24,000 bases of DNA from Terriglobia bacterium (lineage in GTDB: Bacteria; Acidobacteriota; Terriglobia; Terriglobales; Acidobacteriaceae), in NCBI GenBank assembly GCA_963796205.1, contig CAWCKR010000004.1:742726-766725 (forward strand), in the 5' to 3' direction. The translations under genes were made by a program, and so were the position numbers. Positions 7,222 through 24,000 of this stretch are shown piece by piece; position 1 is the first letter of the stretch, and each line of letters begins with the position of its first letter. Below the pieces are notes generated by a model. It searched no databases and was not told the origin of the DNA. It saw only the letters and a program-made list of their open reading frames with translations.

Positions 7222-7244
7222 TGCAAAGTTTTGCGCAATTGCAA
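7222..7244. promoter_or_regulatory. dyad-symmetric sequences, possible enhancer/operator in the divergent hexosaminidase / PEP-CTERM intergenic region
   Basis: TGCAAA-GT-TTTGCG overlaps TTGCGCAATTGCAA, which contains the perfect palindromes TTGCGCAA and GCAATTGC. They lie about 65-90 bp upstream of the -24 element at 7309. Confidence 0.2.
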
Positions 7245-7308
7245 GAACCTGTAACTATTATCGTCTCTAGCTTCATGAAAACAATTGGGCTTTCCGGAAC
7301 ACTTCGAA

Positions 7309-7324
7309 TGGCGCACCAGTTGCT
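7309..7324 (+). promoter_or_regulatory. sigma-54 (-24/-12) promoter
   Basis: TGGCGCaccagTTGCT against the consensus TGGCAC-N5-TTGCW: one mismatch and exact spacing. It sits about 65 nt upstream of GTG 7389. Confidence 0.5.
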
Positions 7325-7388
7325 GCACTTCCTCACAGCGCAGGTCTCGGCGGCCCCCGGACAAATCAGACCTGCAGGAGCCACCTCT

Positions 7389-7934
7389 GTGAATCGTTCT
7401 ATCAGGTTTTCGCGCCTTTTGTTCGTTTTCATTGCTCTGGCCGTTTTTGCCACGGCGGCGTACGCAGACTCCAGCCTCGACCCCACGATCATCATTCGCG
7501 ATCCCGCGTGCCCGACGCCGGGCTGCATTTCGGTCGGCCAGAACTTCACTTTCGGCGTCCCCAACAGCGGGCAGGGAACCCTGTTCTTCACCAACGCCTC
7601 GGGCATCGACTGGAACAACCTTAAGCTCACCGAGAGCGGCGTCTCGGCCAACGTGATTGGCTGCACCACCACCGCGTTCGCGAATTGCACGGTCTCGACG
7701 GTGAATGGAGTGACCACGATCTTCCTGTCGGGTGTGAACCAGAATTTCCTCGGCATCACCAACGGAGAGAACTTCTCCATTGTCTTTGGATGCGTGGAAG
7801 GAACCTGTTGGCCCGGTGGCCTGGACTTTACCGCCACCGCTAACGTTCCTGAGCCCGCGACCATGGCTCTGCTGCTGACCGGACTCGGCGGAATCGTCAC
7901 TCGGCGCCGCTGGGGTAAGCGTCCTGCTGCCTAA
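7389..7934 (+). CDS. PEP-CTERM sorting-domain secreted protein
   Basis: C-terminal VPEPATMALLLTGLGGIVTRRRW gives the PEP motif, a TM helix and an Arg cluster. Signal peptide FSRLLFVFIALAVFATAAYA. GTG 7389 with AGGAG 8 nt upstream was preferred over the ORF-track ATG 7239, because the upstream in-frame codons overlap the sigma-54 promoter. Confidence 0.8.
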   Translation: MNRSIRFSRLLFVFIALAVFATAAYADSSLDPTIIIRDPACPTPGCISVGQNFTFGVPNSGQGTLFFTNASGIDWNNLKLTESGVSANVIGCTTTAFANCTVSTVNGVTTIFLSGVNQNFLGITNGENFSIVFGCVEGTCWPGGLDFTATANVPEPATMALLLTGLGGIVTRRRWGKRPAA

Positions 7935-12825: not shown

Positions 12826-14144
12826 GTGTTCCAGCGATTCCGCGCGCTGCTTTTGTTGAGTCTGCTCCTATGCCTGCTGAGTTGTGGCGGGGGCAGTTCA
12901 AACGCCAATCCCGCTCCGCCTCCTCCCCTTCCCGGCGCCATTCCCGCCAAACTTTTTTCGCTCTCCGTTCACAGCGTCAACGACTGGCCGACGGTTCCAT
13001 TTGCCGGCCTTCGCCTGTGGGGAACCGGTACTTCATGGCAGGACATCAATTACGCACCGGGAATCTTTGATTTCTCAGCGCTCGACCGCTGGATTAGCGC
13101 CGCCCAGGCTCACAACACCGATTTGATCTACACCTTCGGCGAAGTGCCCGGCGTGGGCCTCTTCCGACACGACTCTGATTTGCGGTAACAGCGGCGCTCC
13201 CATCGGCACTTGCGCTCCGCCTGACGATCTCAATGCTGATGGCACCGGAGCCAACCAGCATTGGAAGGACTTCGTGACCGCTGTGGTCACCCACGCCGCG
13301 GGAAAAATCAAGGTCTGGGAAATCTGGAACGAACCCACCGTCCCCGGATACTGGCAGGGCACGAACCAGCAGATGCTGCGCTTGGCGCAAGACGCCTACG
13401 GCATCATTAAAGCCATCGACCCGAATGCGCTGGTGACCACGCCCGCGCCCTCTACCGGAATCAACGGCGTCGCCAACTGGATGGGCCCCTATCTCGCGCT
13501 CGGTGGTGGCAATACGCCGACATCATCAGCTTTCACGGATATAACTGGAGCACGCAGGCGGGAGTCTATCCCCAGCCCGAGGCCATCGTCCCCCTGGTAA
13601 ACAATCTGCAGGGCCGTATTGGCCAGCAATTCGCAAAATAATAAACCGCTGTGGTGCAGCGAAGGCGGCTGGGGAGACACGACCGGCAACGGCTTCGTCG
13701 ATCAGGATCTGCATGCCGCTTACTTGGCGCGCCACTACCTGTTGCAGGCAAGTGAAGGCGTCGTCCGTTACTTCTGGTATGCCTGGGATAATGGCCTCGA
13801 CAGCGCCGGATTGCCCGATGGACTCTGGCTTCCTAATCTCCGGCATCACGCCGGCCGGCACGGCCTATCAGCAAATTCAAAACTGGATGGTCGGCGCCGT
13901 GCCGACCGCCCAGTGCTCCGCCAACGGAAACATCTGGACCTGCAATTACACTCGCGCGAACGGATATCAAGCCGAGGCGATCTGGGATACCTCGAAGAGC
14001 TGTTCGAACGGCATCTGTGGCACCGGCCCGCAAGGTGCACCATCGCAATATGTGCACTACCGCGATCTCAACGGCAATACCACCAGCATTACCGGTGGTA
14101 CTGTCCCGGTGGGAGCGAAACCGATCCTGTTAGAGAATCAGTGA
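12826..14144 (+). pseudogene. clan GH-A (TIM-barrel, GH39/GH5-like) glycoside hydrolase lipoprotein, disrupted by four frameshifts
   Basis: Lipoprotein signal (LLLCLLSCGG). The reading frame must switch near 13150, 13511, 13636 and 13815 to give a continuous sensible protein. That protein carries WEIWNEP (acid/base Glu), ADIISFHGY and KPLWCSEGGWG (nucleophile Glu). ORF-track pieces: 12826..13188, 13274..13600, 13619..14185 and 13713..14144. Confidence 0.75.
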
Positions 14145-14253
14145 AGCTCGTGCAGATGACCGTCCCGTTGCGCGTCTCGCCATAATGCGAGGCAATCTGC
14201 TTGATCCATTGGAAGGGCGTGTCCATTGCATGAGCCAGCCGATGGAACGTCTC
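14143..14253 (-). pseudogene. possible relic fragment of an arylsulfatase-family gene
   Basis: A start-less ~37-codon stretch, AHAMDTPFQWIKQIASHYGETRNGTVI, resembles the conserved TPFQW-KQ(V/I)ASH-GGTRN block of large arylsulfatases as I remember it. It is bounded by a stop upstream and has no continuation. Confidence 0.3.
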
Positions 14254-14356: not shown

Positions 14357-14433
14357 GGGCGCGTAGCTCAAACGGATAGAGCATCGGATTTCTAATCCGA
14401 GGGTTGCAGGTTCAATTCCTGCCGCGCCTACCA
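14357..14433 (+). tRNA. tRNA-Arg (anticodon TCT), CCA encoded
   Basis: Manual cloverleaf. Acceptor GGGCGCG/CGCGCCT. D arm GCTC-AAACGGATA-GAGC. Anticodon arm TCGGA-TTTCTAA-TCCGA. Variable loop GGGTT. T arm GCAGG-TTCAATT-CCTGC. Discriminator A followed by CCA. Confidence 0.95.
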
Positions 14434-15353: not shown

Positions 15354-15371
15354 TTGTGACTTACGTCACAA
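15354..15371. promoter_or_regulatory. perfect CRP/FNR-family type palindrome
   Basis: TTGTGAC-ttac-GTCACAA, i.e. TGTGA-N6-TCACA with extended arms. It lies about 110-125 nt upstream of the cytochrome-porin ATG (15480), in the divergent intergenic region. Confidence 0.4.
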
Positions 15372-15479
15372 ACCTGCGTGACCCCTGCCACAGCGTCTTG
15401 GGTCGTAGCTAACCGAAAATCCCCACACTGAGTTTGGGGAGTATCGGTTCAGAGAATGAATTCATTAGGAGGCGATTCG

Positions 15480-17054
15480 ATGCCCATGCATCGTCGCAAG
15501 ACTGCAATCTTGTTCGTGCTCGCTGGCATGATTCTGCTGTCGAGCACAAGCTACGCCATTCCCGCGTTCTCACGCCTGTACGGGACATCGTGCAGCACCT
15601 GCCACCTCGACTTCCCCAAGCTCAATGACTTCGGGAAAGCCTTCAAAGATGCTGGCTTCAAGTTTCCGAAAGACGACGAAACCTTCATCAAGATCCCGCC
15701 GGTGATGCTCGGATCGCAGGCCCAGCAGGAACTCTGGCCGCACACGATTTGGCCGGGCAGCATTCCCGGACTGCCTCCGATCGGCCTGCGCTATAACACC
15801 TTTTTCCAGGTGGTCAGCCAGAATCGCAACAATTACTCGAATCTGCAGAACCCGGGAGATCCAACAGCCGGCTTCATCCCCCGTACCGATTTTCAGTCCG
15901 GACTGTTCAGCATCTTTACGGCTGGAAACTTCGGCAGCGACATTGCCTTCTGGGTTGATGACGATATCAGCGTTGGAGGGGCTAACGCCAATGGCGGTCT
16001 CGGCGACGGTTACCTCAAGTTTGTGAACATCGGACGCTTCCTCAAATTGCCGACAGACTCTCTGAGCTTGCGGGTCGGCCAATTCGAACTCGACTTGCCC
16101 TTCAGCCCGGCGCGCAGCTGGAACCTGAGTGGTTGGGACATTTACGGTCAGTCCAATGTTGGAATCCCGAACGCGACCTTTGGAAGCCCCACGGTAAATA
16201 ATGGCTTTTCCCTGGATAGTGCCGCGCAGGGCGTCGAACTCAGCGGCGGCCATACCTACCGCGGCTACCACTACTCGCTCGCCTTCGTGAATCAAAACAC
16301 CGGTGGCACGCCGGCCGGCGGCACGAACGTTCCGCCTGAGGTTCAGTACACCTCCGACTCGAACTTCAAAGATATCTACGGACGCTTCTCCTATCGTTTC
16401 AATCTCGAGCGCGATCCTAAAAGCCGCAACGAGATTCAGGCCGCGGGAGCTACGGGGCCGCGAGACCATACGTACCTCAACGTAGGCGGCCTCTACTTCT
16501 ACGGCCGTTCGGTGCAGCGCTTCCAGGGACAAGACTCCGCCGGCGATCCCGTCGTTCTCACCGCGCGCGAGCCCTTCTATCGTGCGGGCGCCGATTTCAG
16601 CTTTAACTACCATACCTTCAACCTGTTCGGTCAATACATCTACGGACGCGATCAGAACCTGCTGCCCCTGGTCCCGACCAATTTCGTGTTGCCCAGCGGC
16701 TTCATTACCGGCCATCCGGCGACTTTCGACGGAGGCTTCATCGAAGCCGACTATCTGGCGCTGCCCTGGTTGATGACCATCATGCGCTGGGACGAGGTCA
16801 ACTCCAGCGCCGACTTCTTGAATGGCGTGGGCGCCACTCCCGACTCCTCGAGCGCACCTTTCCTCTCACCCTACCGCTCGGCTCGCAACCGTTTCACACC
16901 CGGAGTGCAGTTCCTGGTTCATGCCAACATCAAAGCCTCGTTCGAATATCAGATTCGGCCCCAGCAGGTCGTTTACGACCCCACGACCGGCAAGCCATTG
17001 ACCAATCCCTTCCGCACCAATTCAGCGGTGGCGGGATTGGAGTTCGTGTACTAA
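15480..17054 (+). CDS. Cyc2-like fused monohaem cytochrome c / outer-membrane beta-barrel porin
   Basis: ATG 15480 lies 7 nt after AGGAGG. Signal peptide ending SYA. A single CxxCH sits right after the cleavage site in PAFSRLYGTSCSTCHLDFPKLNDFG, with a PxL motif after the haem site. About 470 aa follow, rich in Gly, Tyr, Phe and Asn with an alternating pattern. The protein ends in the OMP-type terminus GLEFVY. Confidence 0.8.
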   Translation: MPMHRRKTAILFVLAGMILLSSTSYAIPAFSRLYGTSCSTCHLDFPKLNDFGKAFKDAGFKFPKDDETFIKIPPVMLGSQAQQELWPHTIWPGSIPGLPPIGLRYNTFFQVVSQNRNNYSNLQNPGDPTAGFIPRTDFQSGLFSIFTAGNFGSDIAFWVDDDISVGGANANGGLGDGYLKFVNIGRFLKLPTDSLSLRVGQFELDLPFSPARSWNLSGWDIYGQSNVGIPNATFGSPTVNNGFSLDSAAQGVELSGGHTYRGYHYSLAFVNQNTGGTPAGGTNVPPEVQYTSDSNFKDIYGRFSYRFNLERDPKSRNEIQAAGATGPRDHTYLNVGGLYFYGRSVQRFQGQDSAGDPVVLTAREPFYRAGADFSFNYHTFNLFGQYIYGRDQNLLPLVPTNFVLPSGFITGHPATFDGGFIEADYLALPWLMTIMRWDEVNSSADFLNGVGATPDSSSAPFLSPYRSARNRFTPGVQFLVHANIKASFEYQIRPQQVVYDPTTGKPLTNPFRTNSAVAGLEFVY

Positions 17055-17084: not shown

Positions 17085-17666
17085 ATGAAACGCAATGCCC
17101 TAGTCATAACCATGATCGTCGCTGCACTGGCGCTCGCCGCTCACGCCGGCACCATCAGCGGAAAAGTCTCAGGTGTCGCCGGCGAGTCTGTCGTCTACGT
17201 CGACACCATCGCGGGAAAGACTTTCCCGGCGCCCACGCAGAGTCCCATCATCGACCAGAAGGGTCTCTTGTTCCAACCGCACATTACCGCCGTGCAGGTT
17301 GGAACTACGGTCGAATTCCTCAATAGCGACAGCGTCGCTCACAACGTTTTCTGGACCTCGGTTGGAGGCAACAAGAAGCTCGGACACAACCTCGGTACCT
17401 GGCCCAAGGGCGAGAAGCGTCCCTTTAAGTTCGACAACCCTGGCGCGGTTGCACTGCTGTGCAATGTCCATCCCGAAATGTCGGGCTACGTCATCGTCGC
17501 TCCCACACCGTATTTCGCCGTGACCGACAAGTCCGGTGAATACAAGATCGAAAACGTCCCTGACGGAAGTTACACAGTGACTGCCTGGCATGAAGGCGCA
17601 AAAAATTCCTCCAAGCCTGTCACCGTCTCCGGCGACACCAAAGCGGATTTCACTCTGACCAAGTAA
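17085..17666 (+). CDS. periplasmic type-1 copper (cupredoxin, amicyanin-like loop) protein with a C-terminal CarboxypepD_reg-like beta-sandwich
   Basis: Signal peptide (ALALAAHA). Candidate Cu ligands are the His in SVAHNVFW plus the Cys, His and Met in LLCNVHPEMSGY (C-x2-H-x2-M, as in amicyanin). C-terminal KSGEYKIENVPDGSYTVTAWHEG. AGGAGA RBS. Confidence 0.85.
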   Translation: MKRNALVITMIVAALALAAHAGTISGKVSGVAGESVVYVDTIAGKTFPAPTQSPIIDQKGLLFQPHITAVQVGTTVEFLNSDSVAHNVFWTSVGGNKKLGHNLGTWPKGEKRPFKFDNPGAVALLCNVHPEMSGYVIVAPTPYFAVTDKSGEYKIENVPDGSYTVTAWHEGAKNSSKPVTVSGDTKADFTLTK

Positions 17667-17672
17667 GGAGAA

Positions 17673-17705
17673 GGGGAGCGGTCGCTGACCGCTCCCTTTT
17701 CTTCT
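17673..17705 (+). terminator. rho-independent terminator
   Basis: GGGAGCGGTC-gct-GACCGCTCCC is a 10-bp GC-rich stem followed by TTTTCTTCT, starting 7 nt after the cupredoxin stop. Confidence 0.6.
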
Positions 17706-17758: not shown

Positions 17759-19744
17759 ATGCTGAAACGCTACAAGGACAAAAAAGTCGACAAGGATTGG
17801 TTGAACACAAACTTTCCTTGCATGATGGCCTGTCCGGCCCACACTAACGCGGGACGCTACGTAGGCCTGATCGCCGAAGGCCGCTTCGAAGAAGCCTACA
17901 AAATAGCCCGCGACCCCAATCCCCTGGCCAGCATTTGCGGACGCGTCTGTGCTCATCCGTGCGAGACCGCCTGCCGCCGCGGCGAAATCGACAAACCGAT
18001 TTCCATCCGCGCCCTCAAGCGCTTTCTCACCGAACGCTACGGCGCCGAATCGAAGCACCCCGTCGATGTGAACGCTGGCCGTGGCCAGAACAAGCTACCT
18101 TTCAAGGTTGCTGTCGTTGGCGGAGGTCCCGTCGGACTCTCTGCCGCGCACGACCTCGCCTTAATGGGCTACGCGGTCACGATCTTCGAAGCCGCTCCAG
18201 TCGCCGGCGGCATGCTCTACCTCGGCATCCCCGAATACCGCCTCCCGCGCGACGTAGTCGAAGCTCAAGTCCGCGAGATCCTCGAAACTGGCGACATCAC
18301 CTTGCTGTTGAATCACGCCGCCGGACGCGACTTCGCCATCTCCGACCTCCGGCGAGAAGGCTTCGATGCTGTCTTAATCGCTGTCGGCGCTCACCGTAGT
18401 CGCGACCTCACCATTCCCGGAGTCGATCTCGACGGCGTCTACAAAGGCATCGATTTCCTGCTGAACGTCAACCTCGGCTACAAGTTCACCATCGGCAAGA
18501 AGGTCATTGTCATCGGCGGCGGCAATGTGGCCATGGACGTCGCTCGCTCCGCCGCGCGCGAAGTGGTCAAGCAACACGTCGCCGGAGTCGAAGACCTCGA
18601 ACCCTCGATGGAGAACGTCAGCGCGGTCGCCACCAAAGAAATGGTCGACATCTCGCTCTCCGCGCTGCGCATGGGCGCTCACGAAGTGAATCTCGTCTGC
18701 CTCGAAAAGCGCGAGGAGATGCCTGCGGCTTTGGAAGAGATCGTAGAGGCCGAAGAAGAAGGCATCATCATGCATCCCGGCCTCGGCCCCAAGCGCATGA
18801 TCGGGAAAAACGGACACGTGGTTGCCCTCGAAGCTCTGAAGACCAAGTGGGTCTTTGACGAGAACAAGCGCTTCAATCCAGCGTTCTATGAGGGCAGCGA
18901 GACCCTCATCGAGTGCGACACCATCATCATGGCCATTGGCCAGGCCCCGAAGCTCGACTTTCTAAAGAAGGAAGACGGCGTCGAGATTTCTCCTCGCGGC
19001 TTGATCTCAGTCAATCCGCAAACCCTGATGACCTCAGCTTCCGGCATCTTTGCAGGTGGCGATTGCGTCTTCGGTCCGCGTCTCATCATCGACAGCGTCG
19101 CCGATGGCAAGCGCGCCGCAGTTGGCATAGACGAATTCCTGCGCGGCCAGAAGCATCCCGATCCCATCGTTGAAGTGGAAGTTTTCAAACGCCACAGCAT
19201 GCCTCTCGAATTGCTCGACCTGGTGCGGCCCGCCGTACCCATGCTGCCGCTCGAACGCCGCACCGGAGTCACCGAAGTCGAAATCGGATACGACGCCGCC
19301 AGCGCGGTCGAAGAGGCGCAACGCTGCCTGCACTGCTGGGTCAATACCGTCTTCGAGGGTGTCCCCGAAGACGGCACCATGTGCATCCTGTGTGGCGGAT
19401 GCGTCGATGTCTGTCCTGAGAATTGCCTTGAACTGGTTTCGCTTGGCCGCATCGCCTTCGAGCCGGAAACCGTGCAGCACATCCGCGATGAACAGAAGTT
19501 GTTCGGCGTCGAGCTCGATGAAGTGGCTGCGGACGAACTCGGCGTTGTCACCGGCTCGGCCATGCTGAAAGATGAAACCCGCTGCATTCGTTGCGGATTA
19601 TGCGCTGCCCGATGCCCTGTCGGCACCATCACCATGGAGTCTTACAACCTGGTTCCTGCCGAACCCACGGGATTGATCTCCATTGAAACGATTGATGGAC
19701 CACTTCGCGCCAAAGCCCCGGCAACTGTAGGAGGCCCGAAATAA
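17759..19744 (+). CDS. GltD-like (glutamate synthase small-subunit family) FAD/NAD(P)-binding Fe-S oxidoreductase with a C-terminal 2x[4Fe-4S] ferredoxin domain
   Basis: N-terminal Fe-S motifs (FPCMMACPAHT, CGRVCAHPCETAC). Two Rossmann motifs (VVGGGPVGLSAA, VIGGGNVAMDVA). GGDC near the FAD site. C-terminal CILCGGCVDVCP and CIRCGLCAARCP. No signal peptide or TM helix, so predicted cytoplasmic. Confidence 0.9.
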   Translation: MLKRYKDKKVDKDWLNTNFPCMMACPAHTNAGRYVGLIAEGRFEEAYKIARDPNPLASICGRVCAHPCETACRRGEIDKPISIRALKRFLTERYGAESKHPVDVNAGRGQNKLPFKVAVVGGGPVGLSAAHDLALMGYAVTIFEAAPVAGGMLYLGIPEYRLPRDVVEAQVREILETGDITLLLNHAAGRDFAISDLRREGFDAVLIAVGAHRSRDLTIPGVDLDGVYKGIDFLLNVNLGYKFTIGKKVIVIGGGNVAMDVARSAAREVVKQHVAGVEDLEPSMENVSAVATKEMVDISLSALRMGAHEVNLVCLEKREEMPAALEEIVEAEEEGIIMHPGLGPKRMIGKNGHVVALEALKTKWVFDENKRFNPAFYEGSETLIECDTIIMAIGQAPKLDFLKKEDGVEISPRGLISVNPQTLMTSASGIFAGGDCVFGPRLIIDSVADGKRAAVGIDEFLRGQKHPDPIVEVEVFKRHSMPLELLDLVRPAVPMLPLERRTGVTEVEIGYDAASAVEEAQRCLHCWVNTVFEGVPEDGTMCILCGGCVDVCPENCLELVSLGRIAFEPETVQHIRDEQKLFGVELDEVAADELGVVTGSAMLKDETRCIRCGLCAARCPVGTITMESYNLVPAEPTGLISIETIDGPLRAKAPATVGGPK

Positions 19745-19746
19745 CC

Positions 19747-20238
19747 ATGGCTGACGAGAAACGGATCACCTCGCCGCTACCTACCGACGAGCACTCGCGT
19801 CGGGAATTTTTTCTGAAGCTGGGACTCGGATCACTGGGCATCGCCGCGGCGGGAACGACGGTTTTCGCTTACCAGTTCCTCTCGCCGAACGTGCTCTTTG
19901 AACCTTCCCCGATCGTGAATGCCGGCAAGCCCGAAAGCTACCCCCTCGATTCTGTGACGCTCGATGTCAACAACGGCATTTACCTGATTCACGCCAAGGA
20001 AGGATTCTTCTCGCTAAGTGCCATCTGTACGCATCTCGGTTGCATGACCGCGTGGAAGCCGGAACTCGGCATCATCGCCTGCCCCTGCCACGGCAGCAAG
20101 TTCAAGCGCGATGGCGAAAAAATCGAAGGCCCCGCACCCAAGCCGCTGCCCTGGCTCAAAACCTGGGTCAGCGATGAAGGCGATCTGATGGTCGACCGCT
20201 CCGCCGACATTCGTCCCATGGAGTTCGTGAGGGTTTGA
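19747..20238 (+). CDS. Rieske [2Fe-2S] protein with Tat-type signal/anchor
   Basis: [20 protein letters not shown] (twin-Arg). Cluster boxes CTHLGC and CPCHGS. The start is 2 nt after the upstream stop. Confidence 0.9.
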
Positions 20239-20240
20239 GC

Positions 20241-21032
20241 ATGGAAAAAACGGTCTCAAATTATTTTGATGAGTTGCGCGCAACCAGAATCTGGCGCTCG
20301 GTCTTCCGCAGTGGCATAGGTTCGAGCACTCTGCACCGCTCGCTGGCCATCCAGCAGAACGTCTTCCTGCATCTGTTCTCGACCAAAGTTCGCCGCCGCA
20401 TGCTGAGCTTCAGCACCACCTGGTATCTGGGAACGCTGACTCTCGGGACGTTTCTGATTCTGGTCAGCACGGGAATCTTCCTGATGCTCTACTACCATCC
20501 CTCGGTGCCCCAGGCATACGCCGACACCAAGGACCTGCAGTTCGTCGTTTCTTCCGGACTGTTTCTCCGCAACCTTCATCGCTGGTCCGCACACGCCATG
20601 GTGTTCCTCGTCTTCGCGCATATGTTCAAAGTTTTCTATCGCGGCGCTTATCGCGCCCCCCGCGAGTTCAACTGGGTTATCGGCGTCATCCTTCTGGTCA
20701 TCACGCTTCTGCTCAGCTATACGGGATACCTTCTTCCCTGGGATCAACTCGCCTACTGGGCGATCACCATCGGATCGAATCTCGCTTCGGCGGTTCCGGT
20801 CTTCGGAACCAAGGTCCACTTCCTCATGCTGGGTGGAAATCAGGTGAACGCCAACGCGCTGCTGCGCTTTTACGTTCTGCACTGCATGATCTTGCCGCTG
20901 ACCGCGATCATGTTCATCGCGATTCACTTCTGGCGCATCCGCAAAGACGGCGGACTCTATGCGCACCAAAGCGAACCTAAGACTCTCGCCGCACCGACCG
21001 TGCCGCAAGTCGCCGGAAAGGAGGCGCTGTGA
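20241..21032 (+). CDS. cytochrome b6-type (N-terminal half of a split cytochrome b)
   Basis: Haem-ligand pairs H-x13-H ([17 protein letters not shown]) and H-x14-H ([17 protein letters not shown]); the x14 spacing is b6-type. [11 protein letters not shown] motif. ATG 20241 with a GAGGG RBS; TTG 20235 is an alternative. Confidence 0.9.
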
Positions 21033-21733
21033 GCGATCAGAAAGACTTCGTCGCCGGACTGGATTCCAACGCCCGCAAGTCTCCGAAGCGTATTGTTTTC
21101 GTCACGCGCCGTACTTCGGCGCAAGTCAAAGTCACCGACGAGGACCAGCTTCAGACCTATCCGGAGGTGCTGTTCCGCGCCGTAGTGGCCATCGAAACCC
21201 TGGCGATCGCCCTCGTCGTCATCGCGCTCGCCTTCAATGCGCCGCTTGAGGGCCTTGCCGATCCATCGCATACACCGAACCCTGCAAAAGCACCGTGGTA
21301 CTTCCTTGGCCTGCAGGAAATGCTGCACTATTTCCCGCCCGTGGTCGCCGGAGTTCTGGTACCGACGCTGGTCATCATCGCGTTAGTGGTCATTCCCTAC
21401 TTCAACATCAATATCGAGGCGGAAGGGTTGTTCCTCAAAGACCGCCAGAAGCGTCTGCGGATCTTTTACACGATCGTCATCGTGTTTTGTGCGTTTTTAC
21501 TCTTCTTCGATGTCATCGTTGCTCTCGTCCCAACGCTCATTGTCGCCGCCTTTATGATCGCGGCGTCGCAAAGTTCACCGCAGTCGCCTTCGCCCTTTCG
21601 ACGGTATCTCGCGGCGAAACCGCTCTCTTACTGGATCATGACCTGGTTCCTGTTCGAACTGGTCGTGCTCACTGCTGTTGGCACCTTCTTCCGCGGCCCG
21701 GGCTGGTCCTGGGTGCTGCCCTGGAGGAGCTAA
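21029..21733 (+). CDS. cytochrome b C-terminal-domain / b6f subunit IV-like membrane protein with extra C-terminal TM helices
   Basis: GTG start overlaps the upstream stop (GTGA), with GGAGG upstream. [19 protein letters not shown] corresponds to the PEWY-region motif. There are several further hydrophobic helices. Confidence 0.8.
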
Positions 21734-23821
21734 GTGCAATCATCGGGCAAGAACTCTCTCTGGAAAACGCTCTTTGGTGATCCCGTCCGCGCCTTCGGCG
21801 TCGTCAGCATACTTCTGCTGATCTCGCTCGCCATTGCTCCGGCAAAAAATTACTTCAGCGAGTGGCGCCACTACCAACACCAATACCTGAAACTCGTTCG
21901 CGGACGCGGCGACGCCGTCACTCTGCAGCGTCATTTCGAAGCAGGCATTCACCAGATCTGGCTGCCCGAAATCAACGTTGTCGATCGCTGCACCACCTGC
22001 CACGTCGGCCAGAAGGAAGCCAGCCTCACCGATGTCAGCACGCAGCCTTTCCGCCGCCATCCCGCGATTCCGCACACCTCCGAACAGTTCGGATGCGTGA
22101 TGTGTCATCGTGGACAGGGCGCCGCGACCACCGTCGAAGAAGCCCATCGCAGCACGCTGGCCTGGGAGCAGCCGATCCTCCCCGCACGCTACGTTGAGTC
22201 ATCCTGCGGACAATGTCATCACACCCCGCTGACCGGAACGCCGCAGTTAAACGCCGGCCGCGATCTGCTGGCCCGCGCGGGATGCGTCCATTGCCACACC
22301 ATCAAGGCACAGGACGGCAGCGCCATGAAAGCCTCCGACGATCCCCCCTCTCTTTCGCACATCGCCGACAAGACCACGCGCGAATGGATCTACGCCTGGC
22401 TCAAAGATCCACAAGCCTATGCCGTCACCGCGGGCATGCCCAACTTCAAGCTGAGCGATAACGATGCGCGCGACATCTCGGCATTCCTCATCGCGAACAG
22501 CACGCCGCTAGTGGGTGACACCGCAACGGTAGCTGCACCCGGCAAGGCGCCTGATCCGACCGCCGGCGCCAGCCTCTACGGAGAGTCCTTCTGCGCTTCT
22601 TGCCACGCCGTGCAGAATGCCGCTGGGAACGTTGTCGGCGGCAACATCGGACCCGAACTCACTCGCGTTGGCAGCAAGGTGAAACCGGAGTGGTTGCAAG
22701 CGTGGCTGAAAAATCCGCGCACCTATGACCCAGCAACGGCCATGCCGCACTACCGTTTCACCGACCAGCAGGTGAGCGTGCTGAACGGTTTCCTGCAGGC
22801 CAAGGCCGATGCCGATCTGCTCGCGAACGTTCACCTCGAGGCCGCCACTGCTGACCAGATCGCCCACGGCAAACTTCTCGTCACCGAATACGGATGCGCC
22901 TCCTGCCACGAAATCAGCGGGATCAAGAAGCCCGAAAACTTCGCTCCCGAACTCACTCGCATCGGCAGCAAGCCCGTCACGCAACTCATTTTCCTGCCGG
23001 GGATGCAACACTCGCTGCCCGACTACATCTCGAATAAGATCCGGCAGCCGCGAGCCTTCGGATCCGCGCTGAAGATGCCGCAGTACAGCTTCACGCCCGC
23101 GCAGATCGACGCACTCACCACCGCGCTGCTCTCGCTCACCGACCGATCGCAGAGCTTGCCGATGTCGCTCGCAGTGGCCGCGCCTCCAGGCTCGCACTAT
23201 CAACCTGCGGGCAAAGCCGGACAGCTGATCAACGATCTAGCTTGCTTCAGCTGCCACACCATCAACGGCCGCGGAGGCGATATGGCCCCCGACCTTACCT
23301 GGGAAGGCAGTTCCGTGCAGCGCCAGTGGTTGACCGAATTTCTGAAGAATCCCAACACCCTTCGTCCCGCATTGATTCGCCGCATGCCGAAGTTCAATCT
23401 TTCTGATAGCGATATTAACGAACTCACTGATTACATCATGACCGTCTACCAGACGCCGGCCTTCGATCGCGACTCGATGCCGCAGACCGGATATCCCGCC
23501 GCGCAGGTCGAACAAGGCAAGCAACTCTTCTATTCCAAATACGCCTGCCAGTCGTGCCACATCATTGACACGAAAACGGACAAGGGATACGTCGGGCCCA
23601 CTCTCACACAAGTGGGATCACGCCTGACCGCCGCATGGATGTATCACTGGCTGAAGAATCCGCAGGCTCTTCGCCCCGGAACGATGGAGCCGAACCGCAA
23701 CATGAGCGACGAAGATGCGCAGGCATTGACCGCCTACCTCACCACGCTAAAAAGCGGAAAGGCAGCAGCCAAGACAGCTGCCCACACCGGGAAACCCGCA
23801 ACTCTGGAGGCAAGGAAATGA
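21734..23821 (+). CDS. membrane-anchored octahaem c-type cytochrome (3-haem N-terminal module plus five tandem class-I monohaem domains)
   Basis: Eight CxxCH motifs: CTTCH, CVMCH, CGQCH, CVHCH, CASCH, CASCH, CFSCH, CQSCH. N-terminal TM helix FGVVSILLLISLAIAP. The last five motifs are each followed ~45-60 aa later by a conserved Met (MPNF, MPHY, MPQY, MPKF, MEPN). GTG start lies directly after the upstream TAA, with GGAGGAG upstream. Confidence 0.9.
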   Translation: MQSSGKNSLWKTLFGDPVRAFGVVSILLLISLAIAPAKNYFSEWRHYQHQYLKLVRGRGDAVTLQRHFEAGIHQIWLPEINVVDRCTTCHVGQKEASLTDVSTQPFRRHPAIPHTSEQFGCVMCHRGQGAATTVEEAHRSTLAWEQPILPARYVESSCGQCHHTPLTGTPQLNAGRDLLARAGCVHCHTIKAQDGSAMKASDDPPSLSHIADKTTREWIYAWLKDPQAYAVTAGMPNFKLSDNDARDISAFLIANSTPLVGDTATVAAPGKAPDPTAGASLYGESFCASCHAVQNAAGNVVGGNIGPELTRVGSKVKPEWLQAWLKNPRTYDPATAMPHYRFTDQQVSVLNGFLQAKADADLLANVHLEAATADQIAHGKLLVTEYGCASCHEISGIKKPENFAPELTRIGSKPVTQLIFLPGMQHSLPDYISNKIRQPRAFGSALKMPQYSFTPAQIDALTTALLSLTDRSQSLPMSLAVAAPPGSHYQPAGKAGQLINDLACFSCHTINGRGGDMAPDLTWEGSSVQRQWLTEFLKNPNTLRPALIRRMPKFNLSDSDINELTDYIMTVYQTPAFDRDSMPQTGYPAAQVEQGKQLFYSKYACQSCHIIDTKTDKGYVGPTLTQVGSRLTAAWMYHWLKNPQALRPGTMEPNRNMSDEDAQALTAYLTTLKSGKAAAKTAAHTGKPATLEARK

Positions 23822-24000
23822 CAAGGCGCGAACTCACCATCGGCGCAATGACGTTTCTCCTGATGCTCTCCGCTTGCTCGCGCAAGTCTGCCCCGGCATC
23901 AAGTCCTGCAGGCACGGCCTTCGGCGCTGCTATCGTCGAATCAAGTGGAGGCAAGCAGATCGGAGCCACCGGCGCGACCCTCAGCCAACCAATCGTCGTC
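23818..24000 (+). CDS. lipoprotein, partial (continues beyond the window)
   Basis: The ATG overlaps the upstream stop (ATGA). MTRRELTIGAMTFLLMLSAC has a lipobox-like LSAC. The frame is open to the window end. Confidence 0.5.
   Translation, partial: MTRRELTIGAMTFLLMLSACSRKSAPASSPAGTAFGAAIVESSGGKQIGATGATLSQPIVV

Follow-up and report, generated by a model that had tools for sequence, protein, structure and literature searches.

A gene in a 24,000-nucleotide stretch of contig CAWCKR010000004.1 from a Terriglobia bacterium (GenBank assembly GCA_963796205.1; ‘the window’ below always means this whole stretch) very probably encodes a Cyc2-type cytochrome-porin: a protein in which a monohaem c-type domain of some 70 residues, at the N-terminus of the mature polypeptide, would be fused to a 16-strand porin barrel. 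The gene is followed by one for a periplasmic type-1 copper protein (cupredoxin) and then by a block of five genes for a Rieske/cytochrome b complex, and we conclude from these sequences that the bacteria that carry them probably exchange electrons with dissolved iron. The criteria tested support the placement of the protein as a divergent member of the Cyc2 family, one that misses the published filter for the motif upstream of the haem site by two residues.

The haem signature of the Cyc2 family

The criteria that Keffer 2021 set out for Cyc2 are a signal peptide, a single CXXCH, the motif AXPXFAR[Q/K][T/Y] upstream of it, a PXL beyond the haem site, no fewer than 365 amino acids (aa) in all and a 16-strand porin that matches OprO/OprP. 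The gene itself is readily delimited. The interval 15456–17054 of the window holds a single long open reading frame (ORF) on the plus strand, and the coordinates assigned to the gene in a preliminary description of the sequence, 15480–17054, are correct: we place the start at ATG 15480, since a perfect AGGAGG lies 7 nt upstream of it and the orthologues begin at the equivalent Met. An in-frame ATG at 15456 was dropped on the same two grounds, and a 381-aa ORF on the minus strand (15570–16715) is a shadow ORF. The resulting protein of 524 aa lies above the length threshold of at least 365–375 aa. The signal peptide proposed in the preliminary description was also recovered, as judged from the sequence: residues 1–26 look like a typical Sec signal and comprise a basic n-region (MPMHRRK), a hydrophobic core with a maximum 19-residue Kyte-Doolittle mean of 2.0 (at residue 9) and the AXA-like site SYA. 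Cleavage after SYA would make I27 the mature N-terminus and put the haem His at mature position 16; a published model of Acidithiobacillus ferrooxidans Cyc2 numbers its haem His H16, which equals the number predicted here.

The single CxxCH and the PxL previously noted in this protein are both present and conserved. The CxxCH (C38STCH42) is the only one in the protein and is built from its only two cysteines, and the PxL is PKL at residues 46–48. In an alignment of 54 sequences spanning 24–94% identity, C38, C41 and H42 are invariant, and so are P28, R32, Y34 and L48; because it is invariant over this range, the CxxCH is not a chance feature. Extending the comparison to 172 full-length homologues, we found xPxFxRxx followed after three residues by CxxCH in 167, PxL in addition in 163 and exactly one CxxCH in 168, with most members having only two Cys. 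The exceptions to the signature are truncated entries, one CSTCR, one protein with an unrelated-looking N-terminus (P0157) and one with L replacing F (P0240).

The upstream segment AIPAFSRLY agrees with AXPXFAR[Q/K][T/Y] at seven of nine positions and is spaced equally from the CxxCH. Most orthologues have FSRQY at this place (106 sequences), and the canonical FARKY (36 sequences) is found in homologues at 24–46% identity. Full-length relatives of 420–546 aa, at 24–36% identity and with E-values of 1e-27 to 1e-37, carry AIPxFARKYxTSCxTCHxxFPKLNxFGEAFRxNGY. Our comparison with the biochemically validated Mariprofundus protein Cyc2PV-1 used its published mass-spectrometry peptides alone. Its haem peptide QTGAACLSCHFQTFPALNAFGR aligns to residues 35–53 (GTSCSTCHLD-FPKLNDFGK) with 10 identities and a z-score of 9.6, a score reached by none of 300 shuffles, and FPxLNxFG[KR] follows the haem site in both proteins.

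A predicted 16-strand barrel

The region behind the signature had been described as a Gly- and aromatic-rich barrel with the outer-membrane-type end LEFVY, a description with which the composition, the ends of the homologues and the predicted strands all agree. The mature part contains 10.7% Gly, 8.5% Phe and 4.6% Tyr, and a C-terminal F or Y is found in nearly all homologues. AlphaFold2, supplied with the 54-sequence alignment, returned a model (predicted local distance difference test score, pLDDT, 73.4; predicted template modelling score, pTM, 0.76) with short helices in residues 29–85, followed from residue 101 to residue 523 by 16 long strands. A non-barrel fold was one of the outcomes that the preliminary description had named as counting against it; the predicted fold is a 16-strand porin, and in a Foldseek search of the PDB the top match is OprP (2o4v, E 2.6e-11), with OprO (4rjw) and 16-strand porins of the OmpF/PorB class behind it. 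OprP and OprO are the templates reported for Cyc2, and PorB is that reported for Cyt572 of Leptospirillum. While the predicted fold is shared with OprP/OprO, OmpF and PorB (Foldseek E 1e-9 to 1e-11), sequence identity to these porins is about 10%, and they have no N-terminal haem domain.

We considered and set aside a porin of the MtrB/PioB type, for which about 26 strands and a separate decahaem cytochrome are expected: in the model there are 16, and the polypeptide that forms them also carries the haem site. No MtrA-like gene was found adjacent to the Cyc2-like gene.

Taken with the match of the signature at seven of nine positions, the aligned haem peptide of Cyc2PV-1 and the full-length homologues with the canonical motif, the 16-strand model bears out the Cyc2-type organisation that the preliminary description had recognised. 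No Pfam or NCBIfam family matches the protein, and a PDB sequence search gave no relative, the only matches being to Poz1 at an E-value of about 1, which is noise. Since no Pfam or NCBIfam model covers the clade, its standard annotation is ‘hypothetical’.

A cupredoxin gene and a predicted upstream operator accompany the gene

The product of the next gene aligns with blue-copper domains of the PDB and has a complete set of type-1 ligands, H86 plus C126-x2-H129-x2-M132, in the spacing of amicyanin. This gene adjoins the Cyc2-like gene on its 3' side in 80 of 81 loci, the lone exception being a truncated contig, and a cupredoxin gene also adjoins a homologue of 46% identity (P0122 loci). Homologues of about 30% identity in other lineages lie near cupredoxin/CarboxypepD_reg genes and genes for c-type cytochromes. 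It is likely that the Cyc2-like protein works with the cupredoxin.

The cupredoxin domain is apparently joined to a CarboxypepD_reg-like beta-sandwich, either by nesting within it or by fusion: at the mature N-terminus, GTISGKVSG is similar to the first strand of CarboxypepD_reg, and the Pfam match to this family extends over no more than its C-terminal two thirds, which come behind the copper domain. Three of the loci at about 30% identity, which have the canonical motif (L084, L086 and L087), adjoin genes for a histidine kinase and a sigma-54-dependent response regulator. The remaining neighbours encode, in L084, a COX2-like protein, in L086 a large HEAT-repeat cytochrome c, and in L087 a molybdopterin/Fe-S oxidoreductase and a cytochrome c7-type protein. 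Regulation and inner-membrane partners thus seem to differ from lineage to lineage.

Upstream of the Cyc2-like gene lies a perfect palindrome of the type bound by the CRP/FNR family, the sole exact match to TGTGA-N6-TCACA in the 24-kb window. In 74 of 80 loci the 350 bp that precede the orthologue contain the core GTGA-N6-TCAC, with a spacer that varies; its usual place is at -105 to -127. The exact palindrome has 83 matches in 1.47 Mb of loci, and 58 of them fall inside this 350-bp upstream zone, which makes up 1.9% of the sequence. The palindrome is a phylogenetic footprint of a predicted CRP/FNR-family operator, and the conservation of this operator argues for a regulated function. A search for sigma-54 promoters stayed at chance level and gave no site upstream of the Cyc2-like gene, and a sigma-70 scan gave nothing near it. 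A strong terminator-like hairpin in the 92-bp gap after the cupredoxin gene suggests that the Cyc2-like and cupredoxin genes may form a transcription unit of their own, with read-through possible.

A Rieske/cytochrome b block of the Kuenenia type follows the pair

The five genes from 17759 to 23821 (Table 1) are translationally coupled. Their first product, an NAD(P) oxidoreductase subunit, has NfnABC (9bov/9bp5, E 1.3e-92) as its best PDB match, which is also the structural homologue reported for Kuste4570 of Kuenenia stuttgartiensis. The Rieske subunit has its best PDB matches in two Kuenenia proteins, Kuste4569 (9rk4, E 1.5e-22) and Kustd1480 (9rk3, E 3.8e-18), which rank above the Rieske proteins of b6f complexes. 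A potential of +335 mV was measured for the Kustd1480 Rieske protein; the CPCHGSKF segment of the Terriglobia protein carries the same Ser/Phe pair, and its centre is probably high-potential too.

The whole NAD(P)-linked gene set known from Kuenenia (Rieske protein, split cytochrome b6, subunit IV, multihaem cytochrome c and NfnB/GltD-like reductase) is thus present in one operon. For the anammox complexes of this architecture, a role in NAD(P)H formation through quinol bifurcation has been proposed. The likeness to the Kuenenia complexes (Kuste4569-4574 and Kustd1480-1485) consists of the NfnB/GltD-like reductase, the closest solved Rieske protein, the split cytochrome b6 plus subunit IV and the multihaem cytochrome c, with direct sequence comparison limited to the Rieske protein. 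Unlike them, the block described here is found in aerobic soil Terriglobia and has the genes for a Cyc2-like protein and a cupredoxin as its neighbours, and no HAO-like subunit was seen in it.

The block follows the pair of Cyc2-like and cupredoxin genes in 56 of 81 loci, and also at P0122; it is absent from about 22 loci spread over several clades, in which the pair is followed directly by genes for a cytochrome c and a 450-aa protein. A secreted protein of 434–450 aa without a Pfam family ends the operon both where the block is present (L001, 19023–20327) and where it is not (L005, 13219–14571), the two versions being 56% identical; this protein, too, may belong to the module.

Table 1. Positions, in the window, of the Cyc2-like gene, its parts and the features around it
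Feature	Position	Strand	Details and basis
tRNA-Arg(TCT) gene	14357–14433		just upstream of the operon
Perfect palindrome TGTGACTTACGTCACA	15355–15370		TGTGA-N6-TCACA, CRP/FNR-family type operator (predicted); 125 bp 5' of the start codon
Shine-Dalgarno sequence AGGAGG	15467–15472	+	direct sequence reading
Cyc2-like fused monohaem cytochrome-porin gene	15480–17054	+	524 aa plus stop; ORF list, homologues
Signal peptide MPMHRRKTAILFVLAGMILLSSTSYA	15480–15557	+	residues 1–26; cleavage predicted after SYA
Cytochrome signature AIPAFSRLY-GTS-CSTCH-LDF-PKL	15555–15623	+	residues 26–48; CxxCH 15591–15605, PxL 15615–15623; motif of Keffer 2021
Predicted 16-strand beta-barrel	15780–17048	+	residues 101–523; AlphaFold2; aromatic end LEFVY
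Periplasmic type-1 copper protein gene	17085–17666	+	193 aa, signal peptide; Pfam Copper-bind, CarboxypepD_reg; 30 bp 3' of the Cyc2-like gene
Terminator-like hairpin	17670–17700	+	14-bp stem with 8 G-C pairs, then a T-run
GltD/NfnB-like FAD and Fe-S NAD(P) oxidoreductase subunit gene	17759–19744	+	661 aa; Pfam Pyr_redox_2, Fer4_20, Fer4_7
Rieske [2Fe-2S] subunit gene	19747–20238	+	CTHLGC...CPCHGSKF; PDB matches
Cytochrome b6-like subunit gene	20235–21032	+	Pfam Cytochrome_B, E 3.6e-44; NCBIfam ExtP-like, 259 bits, under the 290-bit cutoff
Subunit IV-like membrane subunit gene	21029–21733	+	Pfam Cytochrom_B_C; NCBIfam ExtQ-like, below cutoff
Membrane-anchored octahaem c-type cytochrome gene	21734–23821	+	695 aa; 8 CxxCH
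Lipoprotein (Big_1 and monohaem cytochrome c) gene, start only	23818–24000	+	operon continues past the end of the window

The gene is widespread and strongly conserved in Terriglobia

We searched a set of 5.8 billion proteins for homologues, and scanned one genome per GTDB species using a 14-sequence alignment as the query. The protein set contains at least 2967 homologues, all of them labelled ‘hypothetical’, with 1806 representatives at the 50% identity level; the top 120 are 72–94% identical to the protein described here. Relatives are present in at least 439 of the species-level genomes. The best 80 of these are nearly all metagenome-assembled genomes (MAGs) of Terriglobia, Terriglobales or Acidobacteriaceae from soil and peat, including bins named Silvibacterium, Granulicella and Terracidiphilus, and no known iron oxidiser is among these 80. 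The two closest genome copies, at 94% and 92% identity, both come from Terriglobia MAGs, which confirms the ‘Acidobacteriota-like’ organism to which the preliminary description had pointed. Conservation within Terriglobia is strong, at 62–94% identity. A tblastn search of plasmids gave no match.

Some MAGs have two copies of the pair of Cyc2-like and cupredoxin genes (L068/L069 and L060/L063). The whole operon of the Terriglobia type also occurs, at about 66% identity, in one bin labelled Candidatus Limnocylindrales, of the Chloroflexota (L071); mis-binning or gene transfer may account for this.

Substrate and direction of electron transfer

How would such a system operate? In the mechanism that we propose, the Cyc2-like protein, located in the outer membrane and with its haem attached by a cytochrome c maturation system, would form with the cupredoxin a one-electron path across the outer membrane. 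Dissolved iron would reach the haem through the pore, and the haem would pass its electron to the periplasmic type-1 copper centre. From there electrons could move on to c-type cytochromes and the downstream Rieske/cytochrome b complex, or to a terminal oxidase encoded elsewhere. As to the substrate, iron is the likeliest, because Fe(II) is what all three family members characterised so far oxidise, and we rate its being the substrate slightly above an even chance. With somewhat greater, still modest, confidence we favour a Cyc2-family path across the outer membrane along which, by default, electrons flow inward from Fe(II), inward flow being the default because Fe(II) oxidation is the sole activity shown for family members. 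The preliminary description held that neither direction nor substrate can be read from the sequence, and we agree; taken as a question of its own, the direction is close to even, with family precedent favouring import.

Several observations weigh against the protein being a Cyc2 that takes up electrons from Fe(II). The strict filter PXFAR[Q/K][T/Y], the regular expression with which the sequences of the published Cyc2 tree were screened (Keffer 2021), is missed at two positions, with S31 for A and L33 for Q/K; the same filter may thus have kept the FSR[Q/L]Y clade out of the reference Cyc2 phylogeny. The PxL lies one residue nearer the haem His than it does in Cyc2PV-1 (CSTCH-LDF-PKL vs CLSCH-FQTF-PAL), and the barrel peptides of Cyc2PV-1 do not align to the protein (z at most 2.0). 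This last result fits the published finding that between Cyc2 clusters, which have overall identities of 16–23%, conservation is confined to the cytochrome part. Neither a Met nor a second His is conserved as a sixth haem ligand in the 54 homologues, and the fold model is of moderate confidence (pLDDT 73) and haem-free. As regards function, Keffer et al. caution that Cluster 3 has the least certain role and that many Cyc2 homologues come from organisms for which iron oxidation is not known. Terriglobia are known as organoheterotrophs, and a review reports Fe(III) reduction, not Fe(II) oxidation, for acidobacterial isolates. Finally, the linkage to a quinol-oxidising complex suits the export of electrons at least as well as their import.

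Going by conservation, the sixth haem ligand would be neither His nor Met; the conserved alternatives in the 54-sequence alignment are Y34, K71, K297 and Y300. Charged residues that are conserved in the protein include E253, K297, D298, R368, D372, R436 and E489.

The most serious rival to inward flow is the same chain run outwards, for which we see perhaps one chance in a few: electrons would pass from quinol through the high-potential branch of the Rieske/cytochrome b complex to the octahaem cytochrome, the cupredoxin and the Cyc2-like protein, which would hand them on to Fe(III) in solution or to some other dissolved oxidant, for instance humic quinones, and so provide an electron sink under limiting oxygen. 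The quinol-oxidising block behind the pair in 56 of 81 loci and at P0122 speaks for this, although about 22 of the 81 do without it, and so does the resemblance of the Rieske protein to the high-potential Kuenenia proteins, including the Ser/Phe pair of Kustd1480 with its +335 mV. A reversal of the A. ferrooxidans chain that would reduce Fe(III) has been proposed, and micro-aerobic Fe(III) reduction is known from Acidobacteriaceae isolates, but reductase action has been shown biochemically for no Cyc2-family protein, and a monohaem pore would reach soluble acceptors only. The CRP/FNR-type operator could act as an oxygen- or energy-responsive switch. A bolder version, which we think doubtful, makes the Cyc2-like protein and the cupredoxin the extracellular end of a bifurcating Kuenenia-type complex: one electron would leave the cell for dissolved Fe(III) or a different high-potential extracellular acceptor, and the other would pass uphill via the b haems, Fe-S clusters and FAD to NAD(P)H, whereas in reverse Fe(II) would feed the reduction of NAD(P)+, with a CRP/FNR-type regulator as the switch and with many abundant soil and peat Terriglobia possessing the system. 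If true, this would be an iron-coupled, membrane-spanning bifurcating system outside the anammox bacteria.

Two further explanations take the protein out of respiration. It could be a redox-active porin that serves to detoxify incoming Fe(II) by oxidation, to condition iron for uptake or to sense the redox state of the periplasm or the cell exterior, or that acts on other dissolved species (Mn, Cu or organic radicals). Keffer et al. allow for additional Cyc2 functions and place Cyc2 in many organisms that do not oxidise iron, the distant homologues adjoin a histidine kinase and sigma-54-type regulator pair, and the operon encodes no terminal oxidase. We nevertheless judge this role improbable in view of the tight, conserved linkage to the cupredoxin, c-type cytochromes and a respiratory Rieske/cytochrome b complex, and of the very high conservation within Terriglobia (62–94% identity). 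As for an ordinary diffusion porin that binds no haem and has its CxxCH incidentally, the lack of a match to any Pfam or NCBIfam cytochrome family and the structural matches, all of them to porins without haem, are what one would expect. We reject this explanation as hardly credible: the CxxCH is invariant at 24–94% identity in proteins that mostly have only two Cys, its flanking motif agrees with a validated haem peptide, and the neighbouring genes encode electron carriers.

Relation to known systems

Uptake of electrons from Fe(II), the reading that we prefer, is best set beside the characterised Cyc2 proteins, namely A. ferrooxidans Cyc2 (Cluster 2), Cyc2PV-1 (Cluster 1) and Cyt572 (Cluster 3). 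Common to them and the Terriglobia protein are a signal peptide, a single CxxCH that stands about 12 residues from the mature N-terminus, an upstream motif of the A-x-P-x-F-x-R-x-Y type, FPxLNxFG after the haem site, a predicted 16-strand OprP/OprO-type barrel and an aromatic C-terminus. In length the 524-aa protein is closer to Cyt572, the residues of which are numbered to at least 553, than to the Cyc2 forms of roughly 440 aa. The differences lie in FSRLY in place of FAR[Q/K][T/Y], the shorter distance from haem to PxL than in Cyc2PV-1 and the absence of a conserved distal Met or His; moreover, the host belongs to an organoheterotrophic soil lineage of Terriglobia.

The rus operon of A. ferrooxidans (cyc2-cyc1-cup-coxBACD-rus) likewise links a gene for an outer-membrane cytochrome-porin to one for a periplasmic type-1 copper protein. 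While the rus operon encodes an aa3 oxidase, none is found in the operon described here, and the Rieske/cytochrome b complex of the latter includes an NAD(P) reductase subunit. The link to such a complex recalls the ‘uphill’ PetI bc1 branch of A. ferrooxidans, which joins iron to the quinone pool and NAD(P). The cupredoxin is analogous, not orthologous, to rusticyanin, given its amicyanin-type C-x2-H-x2-M spacing and its CarboxypepD_reg-like domain. With MtrAB, MtoAB and PioAB, and with the porin-multihaem clusters of peat Acidobacteriota, which come from the same phylum, the Cyc2-like protein shares the general task of electron transfer across the outer membrane; those systems, however, place a porin of roughly 26 strands around a separate deca- or multihaem cytochrome, whereas here one polypeptide would supply one haem and 16 strands.

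The preliminary description knew of no characterisation of this function in an Acidobacteriota-like organism. Uncharacterised it is, but it is not unheard of: acidobacterial Cyc2/Cyt572 homologues have been reported bioinformatically (PMC10654088), a similarity-network cluster of Cyt572 includes Acidobacteria, and FeGenie surveys have made Cyc2 calls in Acidobacteriota MAGs. The bare idea of an acidobacterial Cyc2 is therefore not new. The Candidatus Acidoferrum paper describes multihaem Fe(III) reduction genes, not Cyc2, and a 2026 preprint on extracellular electron transfer in peat describes multihaem-porin clusters only. In the literature that we searched there is no description of this Terriglobia Cyc2-like clade, its cupredoxin partner, its operator or its linkage to a Kuenenia-type complex, and for the Kuenenia-type Rieske/cytochrome b block we found none in Terriglobia.

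In acidic soils and peat, Terriglobia rank among the most abundant bacteria, and as a rule they are regarded as plain organoheterotrophs. If the system is active, they would be direct participants in the redox cycling of iron, a process that controls the retention of phosphate and carbon in such soils. The linkage to an anammox-type, NAD(P)-linked complex would also offer a second, genetically more accessible lineage in which the proposed bifurcation mechanism could be tested.

Other features of the window

The region upstream of the operon is wholly unlike that of the 94%-identical locus (L001/L002), which has genes for an extracytoplasmic function (ECF) sigma factor and a YCII protein at this place; the difference indicates a rearrangement boundary 5' of the Cyc2-like gene. 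Further upstream, at 12826–14185, a lipoprotein-like gene with the look of a glycoside hydrolase is apparently split over three frames (ORFs 12826–13188, 13274–13600 and 13713–14144), which could reflect a pseudogene or indels in the assembly. An ORF at 7239–7934 ends in VPEPATMALLLTGLGGIVTRRRW, a sorting signal of the PEP-CTERM type.

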